Positions 5,819 to 47,282 of a stretch of 64,000 bases of DNA are shown piece after piece (position 1 is the stretch's first letter; every line of letters begins with the position of its first letter). Where the stretch lies: positions 29,388,001-29,452,000 of the forward strand of contig OX638156.1 of assembly GCA_951804945.1 (NCBI GenBank), given 5' to 3'. The notes under the pieces were generated by a model. That model saw nothing but the letters and a program-made list of their open reading frames with translations, was not told the DNA's origin and did no database searches. Source of the DNA: Podarcis cretensis (Eukaryota). The translations under genes were made by a program, and so were the position numbers.

Positions 5819-6547
5819 GTATGTTGCTTATGGGAATGTATGTCTAGTGTTTGGCTGATTATGTTTTATATCTAAAATGTTTCCACCCTATTTAATTAGT
5901 TGTCTGCAATTCAAAGGTGCTTGCTGAATTAGGTGATTCAAGGCTCCAGACAGAACCTTCTTCCTGTATGGTTTGCTAGTGATAAATATTCCTCTATTTA
6001 AGGCATTAGAATAATTTTCATACTTTGTGGTAGTAATACAGTACAGTCAATATTTTTGCTTTAATTATTAATAAACACAAATTAACTAATAAAACTCTTA
6101 ATGAAGAGAGCAGGATCATAGAACAAAAGTGGTTTGAAGAATTAAGGAAACATAAGTGATTATACCCTAGTATGATAGATCCAGTGTGTTGTAACTAAAA
6201 TGGCTGCTGTTATATAACAGCAGCCATCTTGATTGTTAAATACTTCATATTGCATACAGTTGAATGCCTCCAGCTCCATAGTAGCTCAAAATACTAATTT
6301 GACCGTTCTGTGATGTGAGTGGAGCATTAGCTTCTAGAATTCAAGCATTTTTGTTTGAAAGGAGGTTCTATGGCTGTCAAATGAAAGATCTGAACCATGC
6401 CACTTAAAATCTTTGAGGCATAAGGTTTTTAATAATGCTTCCGAGTTGACTTGGAAGAAACATTATGCTGTTATGACATTGTCATAGTTCACAATAGCAG
6501 AAGTTTAAATCAAAACTTCTATCTATCCCTCCTTCTCCTAAACAAAG

Positions 6548-7144
6548 GAACGGGAACTGGGCAACTGAAAGCAGAAGGCACAAGTTTGAAAAATACCGAA
6601 AAGCAAAAATCTAGCAAGAAGACAGATGAGATGACAGTCTTTATGGATGACTTGACTTTGAGTTCACCAAAAGAAAGGTCTCGTTCAAGGTCAAGGAGCA
6701 GCTGTAGCAGAAGATCATCTTCAAGATCATCTAGTAGGTCATCTTACTCCACAAGATCAAGTTCAAGCACTTCCTCTTCCTCCAGAAGCTGGAGTAGGTC
6801 AAGAAGCAGATCAAGATTACGTGCTAAAAGGAATTGTTCTTGGAGGTGCAGAAGGTATTCAAGATCTTATTCCAGAAGCCGGTCAAGATCACGTAGCTAC
6901 AAATACCGAGAAAGATACCATCCTAGATACCATAGGCGATACCGCCGCTCTCCTCCAAGATACAGATCACGTAGTAGGTCTCCTGGAAGACCATGCTATA
7001 GAAGATCTTACTCTAGAAGCAGGTCAAGAAGCCGAAGATACTATGGATTTGGAAGAACCATATATCCTGAGGCTTATAGAAGCTGGAGAAGCCGTTCTCG
7101 ATCAAGATCTCGCAGTAGAACCCCTCTTCGCTTGACTGAAAAAG
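6548..7144 (+). CDS. RSRP1: RSRP1 main RS-domain exon (ATG equivalent to the mammalian start at 6631)
   Basis: RS-rich ORF with [12 protein letters not shown] and [13 protein letters not shown], diagnostic of RSRP1; acceptor aacaaag|, donor AAG|gtattg. Confidence 0.93.
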
Positions 7145-7328
7145 GTATTGGCAGATCATCAATCTATATTGGTGGAGAAGCATACTAGGATATTTTCAAA
7201 CTTTGCTATAGAAAAAATATATCCCATCTTAGTTTAAAAAGTCCTGTCTAGAGACTTTTGCTGTACTTTCATTAACTGATAGAAGTAGAGAGTTCTTCTC
7301 CAAGAATAGCTGTACATTGAAGTTACTG

Positions 7329-7384
7329 TGGTTTGGTTTGGTTTGGTTTGGTTTGGTTTGGTTCAGTTCAGTTCAGTTCAGTTC
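7329..7384. repeat. Compound pentanucleotide microsatellite (GGTTT)n(CAGTT)n
   Basis: Seen directly in the RSRP1 intron. Confidence 0.9.
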
Positions 7385-7651
7385 CTGTGTTCAAATCCTT
7401 AGTTGGTTGTAGAATCACTTGATGTGTTTGGGAAGTCACTGTCTCAATTCTTTAGTGTACTGTCTTTGAAAATCACCTCTACCCCCAAGTATAAATTTAG
7501 CTTTTCTGCTCAGTCATCACTAACTTCCCTTTATCTTGCACTGTGGAACTTTTCTGAATTCCTTTTTTGGTGCTTTCAGTTAGTTTTCTATTGCATTTTA
7601 AACCCATGTCACCTAGAGGGCTGAGTACCTGCTGTTGTTTATTTGTTTTAG

Positions 7652-7800
7652 AAAAAAGAGAGCTACTGGAAATCGCAAAGGCCAATGCAGCAAAAACTTT
7701 GGGGACAGACAATGTGGTCCTGCCAGCCAGCTTGAAAATTGGTACAATATCAAAAGAAAGTGAAAGCAGAAAGCCAAATGAGGAGAGTGTAAAGACTATG
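7652..7800 (+). CDS. RSRP1: RSRP1 exon encoding EKRELLEIAKANAAKTLGT...KTM
   Basis: Conserved ELLEIAKxNAAK motif; acceptor gttttag|, donor ATG|gtaagt; phase 1 in, phase 0 out. Confidence 0.92.
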
Positions 7801-8259
7801 GTAAGTGAAATGGTTATTCAGATGCTAAAACTAAATGCTTTGAAAAACTACATAAAAAATAGAGCTAGCCTTGTTTCATCAATTGAAAATAAATATTTGA
7901 AAATATTTTCAAAATGTAGTTAATATTTTTCAAGTTTGGAAACCAAATGGCAGATGTCAAATCTTAGCCTGTTGAGGTAAAGTTACCAAGTAATCCTAAA
8001 CATCTGAGTTCTTTGAAAATGTTCTGAGATTTCCTAATGATTAAATAATAAAATAAATTACATATTTTACTAGCTCTTCAATTTGCTAGTTGGGGTCCTT
8101 TTTCATACGTTTTGCTGACCCAGATAAGGCTAATTTATATGGATGTTAAATTTCAAATGGTGTTCTAATACCTGTCAAATTGTGATGCAACAAAAAGTTC
8201 CCAGAAATTCTTTATCTGGACACACAGCGCATTTTACATGCTTTATTTCTGTCTTATAG

Positions 8260-13333: not shown

Positions 13334-13997
13334 TACAGTGCTACCTCGGTGTCAGGGAACTGCCATTGGAGCCAGAGGGAGAGGGAGGGCTCCAGAGGGA
13401 TTCCGGAGAGCGTACCGGGAGGGAGAGAGGCAGCCCATCTTCTGGGGAAGGAAATCAGCGTAACACTAGTGGAGAAGGGGGGCAGATGGGGGAATCGGCG
13501 AGATGGCTCCATGACTCCTCGCCGGAGACCAGCGGGGAGAGCACGGGTCCTCCGCTGCCCACACCCCTGCGCAGAAGGCTTCCGCGCAGGGAGAGTAGGC
13601 GGAGACTAGGCGTCAAAGAGCTGCTTTGCTGGAAGAAGTTCAAGAAACGCCCACTGACTGATTCTGCCAGCGATTGAGACAGCCACAGGTGAGTGGCTGT
13701 CCGGACAGAAAGGGTTCACCCAGGTAACTCAGCCAAGCGTGGTGCCGATTTACGCACGAGCAACCCCTAGAACCATTACACTCGGGTTACATACGCTTCA
13801 GGTTACAGACTCCGCTAACCCAGAAATAGTGCTTCAGGTTAAGAACTGCTTCAGGATGAGAACAGAAATTGGGCTCCAGTGGCGCAGCGGCAGCAGGAGG
13901 CCCCATTAGCTTAAGTGGTGCTTCAGGTTAAGAACAGTTTCAGGTTAAGTACGGACCTCCGGAACGAATTAAGTACTTAACCCGAGGTACCACTGTA
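13334..13997. mobile_element. Tc1/mariner (pogo/Tigger-like) MITE, interrupted in its left TIR by a solo-LTR-like element
   Basis: TA-flanked TIRs cagtgctacctcgg / ccgaggtaccactg; same family at 28197-28407 and 34504-34721. Confidence 0.85.
13350..13780 (+). mobile_element. Solo-LTR-like element (copy 1) carrying an Arg-rich ORF
   Basis: TGTCAGGG...ATTACA termini; 5-bp TSD ctcgg at 13345-13349 and 13781-13785; second copy at 46826-47282. Confidence 0.8.
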
Positions 13998-26711: not shown

Positions 26712-28196
26712 GCTGGGCAGCAGACTGAGCGGCCACAGAGTTAATCTCTAGAGCCACGTCTCCTGCACGCTATGGGGAAATGTATTTCTTCTTAAATTAC
26801 AACCAGCATTATAATTTAATTCCCAAACATAATTTCCAAGTTTGAACCTATCTGTATAAATCAGGGTCCTTGCAGGGGCTTGTTGTGTAGTAAGTGGTCC
26901 CTGTAAGAAGAGTCCTGGGTTGATCAGTCCAAAAGCCCATCTCATCCAGCACCATGGGAGGAATTCATTGTAGCTCTAACTTAAAGGATCTCAATTGTGT
27001 ACCAGTTGCACTAGCAGAATGGCTTGCACAAGACAAGGCACAGGAAGAGGAGGTGCAGGCCCATCTGGCTCAATGTTACCTATACTGACTGGCAGTGGCT
27101 CTGTAGGATTTCAGACTTGAGTTCCCTCCCAGCTTTACCTGGAGATGCCGAGGATTTAACCTAGGACCGTTTGCATGCAAAAGAGATGCTCCCCCACTAA
27201 ACTAGAGCCCTTTCCCAAATGTGAGCCACCAATGCATTTTCATTCCATGTTTGCCTGCATTTTTGCCTGCATGTTTGCCTGCATTTCACACACGTGCGTC
27301 GAGAACCTCTGCACAGAAACTACGCAGATTCCTGCGTGAATTCCCGGGAGCAGTTATTTGCATTGTTAGCAAATCTGCTTCTTGCAACCCGCCCTTTCTT
27401 CCTTCTTAGCCAATATTTGATCATCTCCCCATCGCTGCTGATAAATTACTATGATATTTAAAGATCTTCTTGAGCTTTGCTGAGCGATGCCTCTAAGTGG
27501 CTTGAGAGTGGAGATTTTGCTTTGCAGTACCACTCGTCATTTTCTGGTGGGTAAAACTCTTTTCCTTTTTAAAAGCCGGAACCTTGCAGAGTTTCCTGCA
27601 GAAGAGGGGCGAAAGGCATTAGCTCTGCATTTAAAATGAAGCAGATTTACAGTATATATCACAGAAATATAGAATGTCAGTAGCAGTCAGCAAGGACTCA
27701 AATACCCATAATCTTTCTCTCTCTTTTCTTTCCGGAGTTTAGGACTCTATGATGCAATCCAAGCAGAGAGCTAAATCCTGAAATATTTTGGTGCTGCTCT
27801 GATTTGGGTTCATCATTATGTCAAAAATGGTTCAATTCCAGTATATTGTTATGAGTTTTGGCAGGGGGGAAGGGCTAGGCTGAATGCCTGGGCCCCCTTC
27901 TAATTCCTAGATCCAACACTGAGTCAAGGAATAGCCAGGCCAGCCTGGGAGATGGATCGCTAAGAGATTGACGGAAAGGGGGCTCCATGCCAGATGACAA
28001 ATGGATGGAGCCCCTCCAGCTCTTAGATAGTTAAATGGAAAAGGCCTAAGTTTGAGAGCAGAGTTTGCTGTGATGTGGCCTAGAGGAAAAAGCTGCAGGC
28101 TGGAGAGAAAATCCAGAACAGATTTAGGGGGTGCTCAGCCGGTGTTCTGCTGTGCAAGCAGGAATCCTTGTGTTGACGGAAAAGGGGAGTTAGCAC

Positions 28197-28407
28197 TACA
28201 GTGGTACCTCGGGTTACATATGCTTCAGGTTACACACTTCGCTAACCCAGAAATAGTGCTTCAGGATAAGAACAGAAATCGGGCTCCGGCGGCGCGGCAG
28301 CAGCAGGAGGCCCTATTAGCTAAAGTGGTGCTTCAGGTTAAGAACAGTTTCAGGTTAAGAACAGACCTCTGGAACGAATCAAGTACTTAACCTGAGGTAC
28401 CACTGTA
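28197..28407. mobile_element. Tc1/mariner-type MITE
   Basis: TIRs tacagtggtacctc / gaggtaccactgta. Confidence 0.85.
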
Positions 28408-29002
28408 CTTTGGATTTCACCCTAAATATTTAACTTGAGCTCCTGCATTTAATAATAGAGAGGAAGAAACACAGACCAAACTGGACATGATGAAGGTAAT
28501 GTGGCCACTGGACTCCTCTGTCTGGCCCTTGGGACCCTTCATTCCTTCCTCTGGTTCTTTTGCCTGATTGAAATGTGTCCTTGAACTGTGACAATGTCTC
28601 TTGTTTGCCTGGATACTGTGATGTGTGGGGTATGTGTTTAGAACCCTCTGATTTAGCGTGGATGGAGTGTGGCGTTCTGCACAAAAGTAAGAGTCAAATC
28701 TGGAATGCCTTCCCTCAGGTAATTTGTGAGGTGGAGACAGTAGTGGCCTTTAAGAATCTCTTAAAAACGTGTGTTTACCCAAGAAGCCTGTTCTTGTACC
28801 CTGACACCTAATTCTCCATTTCGTACATGTCTTGGCTTTATGGACGACATAATTTTCGGCTGTTTTTAGCTAGTTTTTAAGAAAGTTTTCTTGATTGCCA
28901 TTGTTGTATTCTTTTCTTAAAAATGTAAACTGCTTAGAAATTTTCAAAAAATATTATTCTCAATAGTATTATACAAAAAGAAAAGTCCCAAAGAGACTTA
29001 GC

Positions 29003-34062: not shown

Positions 34063-34502
34063 TGTATCCCACCCAGCTTGCCAAACCAGTTTCTTTGTCT
34101 AGGTAACAACTTTGGTTGCCGAGTTAAGTGCCACGATTGGCAAATAAGATACTCTTTGCCATACAACAAATGGGTGGGCATTCCCACCCCTCACATAACT
34201 GCTAGACAGGAGAACAAAAGCCCTAGAGACTGGTATGTGTGAGCTGAGTGGGAATCAGGCTGGAAGCTGGAGACACAGAGACATGCTTGCTTTGTGCTGG
34301 ATCCAAAGTTGTGACTAAGGGAGAGGCAATATCTTTTGGGGTGTTCATGCTGTGAGCCCCTCCTATATATGTGTAAACAAAGCCATATATCTTAAAGAAA
34401 CCACAGCCTCTGCTGACCTTTGTTCCCAGGAAACTGAACTCTGGACAAATGCTGGAATCCCTAGAATATCTTACTGCTTGGAGATTGGGGTGGTGTGTAA
34501 CA
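34063..34502 (+). mobile_element. Possible solo LTR (ERV-like)
   Basis: TGT...ACA ends, internal TATA-like ctatatat; no clean TSD. Confidence 0.4.
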
Positions 34503-34503
34503 A

Positions 34504-34721
34504 TACAGTAGTACCTCGGGTTACAGACGCTTCAGGTTACAGACTCCGCAACCCAGAAATAGTACCTTGGGTTAAGAACTTTGCTTCAGGATGAGAACAG
34601 AAATCGTACGGTGGCAGCGGGAAGCCCCATAAGCTAAAGTGGTACCTCAAGTTAAGAATAGTTTCAGGTTAAGAACGGACCTCCAGAACGAATTAAGTTC
34701 TTACCCTGAGGTACCACTGTA
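34504..34721. mobile_element. Tc1/mariner-type MITE
   Basis: TIRs tacagtagtacctc / gaggtaccactgta. Confidence 0.85.
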
Positions 34722-34818
34722 TATGCTTCCCAGGAAGGCTGAGTCACTGCTTCCTGAGCTGTTGTTTGGAGGAGGGGGACTGCAGGCAGTTCGAGATGTG
34801 ACTTGAACACCATAGACC

Positions 34819-35322: not shown

Positions 35323-36477
35323 CGTAGACGAGCATCCTCTTGACCCTGGCTGAAATCATGTGATTCTGGAAGGCCAATCCTATGCTTATGCCTGTTTGTA
35401 GCTCCAGCATCTCCTGCACTCTGCCGTTATTCCCAGTAGGCTATTCCCAGTAGTGGCTGGTGCAGCGGCACAGCCCTGGACCTCTCTTGTATTGCTGCTT
35501 TCCTAAATATAAATGCAGAGTTTCTAAATCTCAGGCTTTGACACCAAAACACAGGTTTTGGAGTCCATTAGCAGGGCCTTATGGTTTTGTTTGATCTAGA
35601 TGTTTTGCAAGAGAGGGAGAAAGAGAGTACAGGTAACTACCACTCTCTATCTCCATCCACTCACCATTCTGAATGAGCCACTATTGCACAAGTGCCCCCC
35701 CAACCCCCCGCAGTGTTTCCCAGTCGTTAAATGGGAAATCGCATGTGGCTGGAGGGGAATTTTGCAATGAAAAAAACCAACCACGCCTTTCTCCTGAACT
35801 TTCCAGCACCTATTCTACTTCACTACTTTGCCAACCCCTGGATTATATCTCTGAAAATAAAAAGAAATGGCAATCCTGTGACTTTAGAAGGTTAGGGGTC
35901 TTTGAAGAGTTGGATCTTTGTGAGTTTCTGCATGAAACGACCTGATCTGCAACTCTTGGACTAATGCGTGCTTCCCATTTTAGCTGCTTACCAGGAATGC
36001 ACTTCTTGGAATGTTGGGTCATCATCCTCAGAAGCTTAAGCATATGAAAATACAGATTTAGATTGTTATCTTGAGAGAAAACACATCTAAATAATATTTA
36101 AATACATATTAGGTACATAAATAAACACATATTTAAATACATATTTTGGAAGGGGTGTAGCTCAGTGCTAGAATGTCTGAGGAACAAGGACATGTGAGCA
36201 TAATACACATTTCAAGGAAGCTCAGTGGTAGAGCATCTGCTTTGCATGCTGAAGGTCTTGGGCGCAAATCCTGGCATCTCCAGGTATGGCTAGGAGAGAC
36301 CCCTATCAGAAACTTCAGATCCACACCATACATTCAAAGCATATTTGCATCACTATAACAGATACGGCTTCCCCCTGGACTCTCACAGATACCTTTGCCT
36401 GAGCCTGAAGAACCAAATGCTTCCTGCACCTGTCCAGTAGTGCTGGGGGCATACCAGGACGGGGGCTATGGAGTGGA

Positions 36478-36727
36478 GAAGAAGAGTTTGGATTTGGATT
36501 TGATATCCCGCTTTATCACTACCCGAAGGAGTCTCAAAGCGGCTAACATTCTCCTTTCCCTTCCTCCCCCACAACAAACACTCTGTGAGGTGAGTGGGGC
36601 TGAGAGACTTCAAAGAAGTGTGACTAGCCCAAGGTCACCCAGCAGCTGCATGTGGAGGAGCGGAGACGCGAACCCGGTTCACCAGATTACGAGTCTACCG
36701 CTCTTAACCACTACACCACACTGGCTT
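36478..36727 (-). mobile_element. tRNA-derived squamate SINE (Squam3-like)
   Basis: Reverse complement of 46412-46663; A/B-box head, (CTT)n tail. Confidence 0.85.
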
Positions 36728-46411: not shown

Positions 46412-46663
46412 AGAGCCAGTGTGGTGTAGTGGTTAAGAGCGGTGGACTCGTAATCTGGTGAACCGGGTTCGCATCTCCGCTCCTCCACATGCAGCTGCTG
46501 GGTGACCTTGGGCTAGTCACACTCCTCTGAAGTCTCTCAGCCCCACTCACCTCACAGAGTGTTTGTTGTGGGGGAGGAAGGGAAGGAGAATGTTAGCCGC
46601 TTTGAGACTCCTTCGGGTAGTGATAAAGCAGTATATCAAATCCAAACTCTTCTTCTTCTTCTT
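46412..46663 (+). mobile_element. tRNA-derived squamate SINE (Squam3-like)
   Basis: A box tggtgtagtggtt, B box gggttcgcatc; (CTT)n tail. Confidence 0.85.
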
Positions 46664-46825: not shown

Positions 46826-47282
46826 TGTAATGGTTCTAGGGGTTGCTCATGCGTAAGCCGGTGCTTATCTCCCCGGCTGGGTGCAAACACCTGGCTGGGT
46901 TGCCTAAGTGAACCTTTTCTGTCCGGACAGCCACTTACCTGTGGCTGACTCAATCGCTGGCAGAATCCATCAGTGGGCGTTTCTTAAACTTCTTCCAGCA
47001 AAGAAGCTCTTTGACGCCTAGTCTCCTCCTACTCTCTCTGTGCGAAAGCCTTCTGCGGAAGGAGGGCGTGGGCAACGGAGGACCCCTACTCTCCCTGCTG
47101 GTCCCAGGCAAGGAGTCATGGGACCGCCTCGCCGCTTCCCCCATCTGCCCCCCTTCTCCACCTGTGCTACGCTGATTCTCTTCCCCAGAAGATGGGCTGC
47201 TTCTCCCGATCCCTGGACGCTCTCTGGAATCCCTCTGGCTTTTGCTCTCTCTCTCTCTGGCACTGATGGCAGTTCCCTGACA
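46826..47282 (-). mobile_element. Solo-LTR-like element (copy 2) carrying an Arg-rich ORF
   Basis: Reverse complement homologue of 13350-13780; same termini; TSD agagc/agagt. Confidence 0.8.

Follow-up and report, generated by a model that had tools for sequence, protein, structure and literature searches.

A reading frame in lizard solo LTRs as the probable C-terminal tail of a chromovirus Pol polyprotein

The reading frame shared by two long terminal repeats (LTRs) in a 64,000-nucleotide stretch of the Podarcis cretensis genome (contig OX638156.1; the whole stretch is hereafter the window) very probably belongs to the end of a Pol polyprotein rather than to an accessory gene, the two repeats being solo LTRs left by a Ty3/Gypsy chromovirus of the Tf1/sushi type, the last 44 Pol codons of which are under purifying selection. 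In this family some 210 residues of Pol follow the integrase chromodomain, and the stop codon is reached only after 100-109 codons of the 3' LTR. Both copies in the window are genuine solo LTRs with 5-bp target-site duplications (TSDs), and their features are as follows.

13350..13780 (+): solo LTR of subfamily A (copy 1), TGT...ACA, 431 nt, 96% to both LTRs of the paired-LTR element L061
13345..13349 (+): left TSD of copy 1, CTCGG, with an exact right counterpart at 13781-13785
13351..13677 (+): probable remnant of the Pol C-terminal tail in copy 1, U3 and start of R, 108 codons plus TGA
13486..13488 (+): internal ATG of copy 1, within U3, 167 nt 5' of the predicted transcription start
13546..13674 (+): basic block at the C-terminus (GPPLP...DSASD), conserved between subfamilies by purifying selection
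13600..13650 (+): putative bipartite NLS-like motif of copy 1 (2 basic, 10 spacer, 4 of 5 basic)
13653..13663 (+): self-primer of copy 1 (one mismatch) and predicted transcription start, at the U3/R border, overlapping codons P-L-T-D-S
13686..13694 (+): putative 5' splice site in R/U5 of copy 1, by sequence resemblance (CAG/GTGAGT)
46826..47282 (-): solo LTR of subfamily B (copy 2), 457 nt, TSD ACTCT/GCTCT with one mismatch
47144; 46964-46974; 46950-46952 (-): ATG, self-primer site and stop of copy 2
13336..13995 (strand not assigned): TA-flanked inverted-repeat element (MITE-like), host of the copy 1 insertion and separate from the LTR element

The two copies are 82% identical. An earlier note on this DNA had described them as TG..CA elements with TSDs of about 5 bp that keep a common frame to a common stop, and this description holds, with TGA at 13675-13677 in copy 1 and the corresponding stop in copy 2. 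It was also right that over the last ~80 codons the sole indel is a 3-nt in-frame one, confined to copy 1 (431 nt, as against 434 in most near copies), that the two copies share the internal ATG at 13486, from which the frame is 63 aa long, and that the elements have neither TATA nor AATAAA. The supposed opening of copy 2 from its first base is an artefact of two extra nucleotides in a GA run (457 versus 455 nt), the family frame being shifted in copy 2 near the 5' end of the LTR. Copy 1 is itself open from element base 2 (13351-13677), which is the family frame (VRELP...), and in full-length copies the same frame is continuous with the integrase-chromodomain region. Pfam matches in the window were confined to 2 of the 120 long frames scanned.

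The LTR family and the Pol frame that enters it

In the lizard's own genome, 1.5 Gb in 51 contigs, whose proteins match Podarcis muralis records at 99%, copy 1 drew 2,964 first-look candidates and the internal 3' end 371, neither figure being a copy number. The best-scoring LTR loci were examined in four subfamilies (30 of 40 scored in each of A, B, and C, and 20 of 150 in D, whose loci were found by protein similarity); subfamily C is about 71% identical to A. The examined loci are mostly solo LTRs, and exact 5-bp duplications flank the LTR in 26/30 A, 23/30 B, 17/30 C, and 12/20 D loci. Among the 30 copies of each subfamily, 23 in A and 22 in B have the 109-codon LTR frame, and the stop codon is TGA in A, B, and D and TAA in C. 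The LTR frame had no match in a Pfam search, and the ESM Atlas gave no usable match.

That the element is an LTR, as the earlier note held, is borne out by paired-LTR copies elsewhere in the genome. The search that it called for, for a full-length element bounded by this repeat, led to L061, reached through a subfamily A copy that lacked its own duplication and proved to be the 3' LTR of the element. L061 has LTRs that differ at 10 of 434 positions and a matching TSD, and its Pfam domains follow the order Retrotrans_gag, protease, RVT_1, RNase H, integrase, SH3_Tf2-1, and Chromo, with the chromodomain (PF00385, E 3e-10) after SH3_Tf2-1. Its coding region is interrupted by stops and frameshifts, and its last frame of 364 codons holds the SH3 domain, the chromodomain, an acidic stretch, and the entire LTR peptide. 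Four LTR pairs with exact TSDs were found in subfamily C. The class is therefore Ty3/Gypsy and not ERV, as paired LTRs and a TSD enclose gag and pol in the order PR-RT-RH-IN, and the reverse transcriptase is closest to Ty3 among solved structures; the chromodomain at the integrase C-terminus marks a chromovirus, and a self-primer complementary to a site after the 5' LTR, with no tRNA site, marks the Tf1/sushi group, a placement made from domains and self-primer. An endogenous retrovirus with an accessory gene was considered and rejected, no retroviral reverse transcriptase, tRNA primer site, or separate ORF with its own start being present.

The passage of the Pol frame into the LTR can be followed at many loci. 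The internal-to-LTR junction GTGGA/TGTC occurs in 28 of 30 internal 3'-end loci, and the frame from the chromodomain to the LTR end is unbroken in 11 of the 30 junction loci, one reading five codons further, as well as in two C and two D loci. One frame of 722 aa covers the integrase through the stop, two of the 150 subfamily D matches sit in open frames of 1,248 and 1,320 aa, and the UniRef Podarcis Pol models P0002 and P0005 end in the LTR-encoded tail. In subfamily B the chromodomain-to-stop frame was unbroken in none of 12 junction loci, of which 7 keep the 109-codon LTR frame and only 2 have the B-type U5 insert. The suggestion of a frame that starts internally and continues into the 3' LTR was thus correct, since the Pol frame crosses the polypurine tract (PPT) to the DSASD stop. 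This removes a false accessory-gene lead, the thousands of solo LTRs carrying instead a fossil Pol end, which also leaks into public gene models.

Pieces of the LTR frame are contained in the UniRef models P0001 (phospholipid-transporting ATPase, Podarcis muralis) and P0003 (Gla-domain protein). The P0001 model ends in the conserved basic block, as either a gene-model artefact or a real exonisation.

The tail beyond the chromodomain

Two motifs lie between the chromodomain and the PPT, each made up of a hydrophobic stretch, an acidic linker, and FxGF. Their key aromatic positions are invariant in 13 of 13 aligned copies and the first glycine in 12 of 13; the first motif reads LEGF in P0002 and P0005. 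Motifs of this type were found in subfamilies A, C, and D and in the distant P0130 (one motif) and P0142. The interaction motif for LEDGF/HRP2-type TNDs is described as a helix anchor, an acidic linker of 8-16 aa, and FxGF, the last being specific to LEDGF/HRP2 binding (PMC9987994), and the lizard motifs share the hydrophobic helix-like stretch, a linker of 8-10 D/E/S/T/G residues, FxGF, and the tandem arrangement. They match as a sequence pattern, the helix being absent from the AlphaFold2 model. In shuffled sequences at least one match to the FxGF rule arose at rates of 0.1-0.8% and two matches in at most 1 in 20,000, rates that overstate the significance because the rule was written after the motifs had been seen. 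In the AlphaFold2 model the chromodomain folds with pLDDT of about 90 and most of the tail falls under 50; the tail after the chromodomain is hence predicted to be disordered, the low pLDDT being weak evidence of this since the alignment had only 8 rows.

The chromodomain itself does not have the Y-W-Y cage of the group I readers of H3K9me. The W is kept, the third position is E where HP1 has Y, and the first position, counted from the HP1 motif, is one that we take to be non-aromatic. Lack of the third and probably also of the first aromatic is as in group II chromodomains (PMC3605345). Binding of the two motifs to a domain of the TFIIS-N-terminal type, for instance that of LEDGF/HRP2, is, judging from the motif pattern, a serious possibility which we place just below even, and the further step that they steer integration in place of the degenerate chromodomain is offered tentatively.

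The end of the tail is basic. Bipartite nuclear localization signals (NLSs) have two basic residues, a spacer of ten, and at least three basic residues among the next five, and this rule, applied as it stands, describes 82 of 85 intact frames, in agreement with the NLS-like character ascribed to the basic end in the earlier note. The last 44 residues include 12-14 K/R, and LLCWKR is kept in the distant P0130, which ends in it and whose tail gave no match in genome G000 with the query used. From these features the basic Pol end probably, if by no wide measure, serves the integration complex as a bipartite NLS. It is rather unlikely, although the density of basic residues would suit it, that the block is instead an RNA- or DNA-binding or packaging patch of Pol, or a small protein released by the protease, and that the acidic motifs bind some partner other than LEDGF/HRP2. 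When 1.84 billion representatives were searched with a profile, 36 of the best 150 matches had an AT-hook-like RGRP motif, a sign that chromovirus tails may bind DNA, and many TND proteins exist that could serve as such a partner (PMC9987994). Against this, the exact bipartite spacing is kept in nearly all intact frames, an integrase C-terminal NLS together with a short targeting motif is the arrangement reported for Ty1 (PMC7459421), and FxGF is the form described as specific to LEDGF/HRP2.

Among the same best 150 matches, 5 fit the FxGF rule and 2 carry LLCW. P0165, P0225, and P0266 and similar unnamed chromovirus-like integrases, their ends known from protein sequence alone, finish with an AT-hook-like motif, a glycine run, and ...SPEY/F. 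Since this run of glycines is similar to the PPT junction of the lizard element, a short overlap of Pol with the 3' LTR may be widespread.

Self-priming, the internal ATG, and selection

No tRNA primer site was found after the 5' LTR. An 11-nt stretch located 2 nt past the 5' LTR is complementary to the LTR codons P-L-T-D-S, a complement of 11-12 nt is present in 5 of 6 B and C 5' LTRs, and in subfamily D it is present in two of two pairs with a compensatory A-T to T-A change. Folding of the leaders gave the self-primer duplex in five of five cases, with mean pairing probabilities of 0.90-0.97. The last seven Pol codons both encode the end of the protein and supply the self-primer of the RNA. 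The RNA of Tf1/sushi elements has the self-primer as its 5' end (bioRxiv 10.1101/2022.12.06.519325; PMC6317226), which by analogy places the predicted transcription start at 13653, 167 nt downstream of the ATG at 13486, and the LTR promoter would therefore not transcribe that ATG. Hence it is highly likely that Pol is made from a full-length RNA starting at the self-primer, in which case U3 is translated from its copy in the 3' LTR only, and a solo LTR yields no peptide.

These data bear directly on the earlier claim of a separate accessory gene resembling nef, sag, or Rev. A 63-aa peptide translated from the internal ATG, on an RNA with an upstream U3 start or on a spliced RNA and either alone or besides Pol, would account for an ATG whose position aligns, and whose context is good, in A, B, and C, where 65 of 69 intact frames have Met. 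We regard it as very improbable, since the frame is continuous with the integrase-SH3-chromodomain region of Pol and stays open 5' of the ATG in each of the four subfamilies (LTR frames of 109, 109, 105, and 100 codons in A, B, C, and D), Met is found in only 2 of 16 intact D frames, and the predicted start lies downstream of the ATG.

Contigs from four runs that were guessed to be RNA extend over the LTR, one of them across the PPT junction, and no start or splice is seen in any. Neither AATAAA nor ATTAAA occurs downstream of the predicted start in 110 LTRs, among which ACTAAA is present in 29/30 C only. The splice-donor-like CAG/GTGAGT is found in 29/30 A, 29/30 B, 0/30 C, and 0/20 D LTRs, about 35 nt past the predicted start and, in B, within the loop region of a predicted hairpin. 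Such a site could let solo LTRs serve as first exons.

The last 44 codons are under purifying selection between subfamilies. The count of 6 synonymous to 4 replacement changes from GPPLP onward between the two copies is accurate, and on its own it is borderline (P 0.04-0.07, with a neutral synonymous share of about 0.30). The comparison between subfamilies that the earlier note had asked for bears out its hint of selection, with net dN/dS over the last 44 codons well below 1, at 0.06 for A-B (CI 0-0.39) and 0.16 for both A-C and B-C; over the first 65 codons it is 0.50-0.78. The transition-weighted pN/pS of this block (0.35-0.44) approaches that of the chromodomain (0.29-0.35). Across A-D, 11 of the 44 codons are invariant, 17 vary synonymously only, and 16 change residue, and the between-subfamily synonymous shares of 6/7, 16/27, 23/43, and 27/53 compare with a neutral 0.25-0.32 (P 0.001-0.006). 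Since insertion, the members of six LTR pairs have come to differ by 7 synonymous and 22 replacement changes (7/29). The comparison of between-subfamily with private changes, in which the D copies had been picked by protein similarity and one out-of-register C copy was dropped, gave P 0.046 for A-B and 0.18-0.38 (not significant) for the others, because the private changes are themselves synonymous-rich (33:44). That a DNA or RNA constraint such as a promoter or the self-primer explains the conservation, the frame being an unselected run-on of Pol, is very improbable and largely refuted. In its favor, 6 of the 7 codons from -10 to -4, which surround the predicted start, do not vary at the DNA level, amino-acid change in the first 65 codons of the LTR is close to neutral (about 0.5-0.9), and the private-change test is mostly not significant. 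Against it, codons varying only synonymously make up 17 of the 44, dN/dS stays low without the self-primer codons (0.06-0.20), only the antisense frame sharing third positions is clearly below 1 among the five other frames, the stop change is synonymous, and LLCWKR is kept in P0130.

In the mechanism that we envisage for a selected Pol tail, the RNA would begin at the self-primer in the 5' LTR and span the element to the 3' LTR, and Pol translation would run through the chromodomain, the acidic FxGF stretch, and the PPT into the 3' LTR. The basic end of the tail would bring the integration complex into the nucleus, the FxGF motifs would tether integrase to a LEDGF/HRP2-type domain, and this tethering would take over site choice from the degenerate chromodomain. 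A reptile chromovirus whose 210-residue integrase tail, about half of which lies within the LTR promoter, copies the tandem FxGF motifs of its host, binds LEDGF/HRP2, and aims at transcribed gene bodies is possible, though on sequence grounds we hold it short of probable. If true, one DNA stretch would be promoter, RNA primer, and protein end together. The tail is a testable candidate for nuclear entry and site choice by a vertebrate Gypsy element, and if its FxGF motifs bind LEDGF/HRP2 they would show that mimicry of a short motif can lead, independently, to the tether that lentiviruses use. LEDGF is the host protein on which HIV relies in selecting its integration sites; lentiviral integrases bind it through a folded surface and are not known to use an FxGF motif.

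Related systems and neighboring sequence

The frames of HIV nef, MMTV sag, and Rev/Rex/Tat belong to separate genes on their own spliced RNAs; they share with the lizard frame an overlap with U3 of the 3' LTR and an Arg-rich character, whereas the lizard frame is the end of Pol. With the Tf1/sushi chromoviruses (Tf1, Sushi-ichi; GyDB V-clade) the lizard element shares the gag-pol order PR-RT-RH-IN-chromodomain, TG...CA LTRs, and self-priming without a tRNA site (bioRxiv 10.1101/2022.12.06.519325; PMC6317226), and it adds the tail of about 210 residues, acidic and then basic. The fish Sushi LTR model has a clear AATAAA (PMC3601003), unlike the lizard LTRs. Extension of the Pol frame into the 3' LTR is already known from plant chromoviruses, namely the CRM group A elements (CR motif) and Reina Bingo1-4/7, and in CRM the LTR-encoded part is regarded as a putative targeting domain (PMC3059260; PMC3605345). 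Those are tRNA-primed plant clades; in the lizard element, as in Bingo, the PPT follows the chromodomain, and the LTR part of 100-109 codons overlaps the self-primer, the CR motif being compared by its description. The Ty1 integrase, with a C-terminal bNLS and an AC40 targeting domain, and Ty5, with TD-Sir4, are alike in combining a bipartite NLS with a short host-binding motif, but are Copia elements, apparently not LTR-encoded in this part, whose functions are demonstrated where those of the lizard tail are predicted (PMC7459421). What appears to be new, against the literature searched, is the presence of two conserved FxGF motifs beside a chromodomain with a degenerate cage. The lizard motifs sit in a retrotransposon integrase, whereas the viral mimicry passage of PMC9987994 names only lentiviral integrases. 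Searches of the full-text literature turned up no report of FxGF motifs in the integrase of a retrotransposon, nor any paper on the present lizard family; bioRxiv 10.1101/624023 concerns a host kinase. Repeat catalogues such as Repbase or Dfam may already list the family and its LTR overlap. The primary Tf1/sushi paper, Butler et al. 2001, may already describe an overlap of Pol with the LTR in vertebrate elements.

The TA-flanked inverted-repeat family at 13336-13995 hosts LTR insertions at three examined loci, including L025 and L117, and has further copies in the window at 28194-28417 and 34501-34731. Exons of an RSRP1-family host gene lie at 6436-7920 (+), about 5.4 kb upstream of copy 1. 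Next to copy 2 lie two copies of a repeat in inverted orientation to each other, 36477-36726 and 46414-46662, 10 kb apart, one arm of which is 98% complementary over 171 nt.
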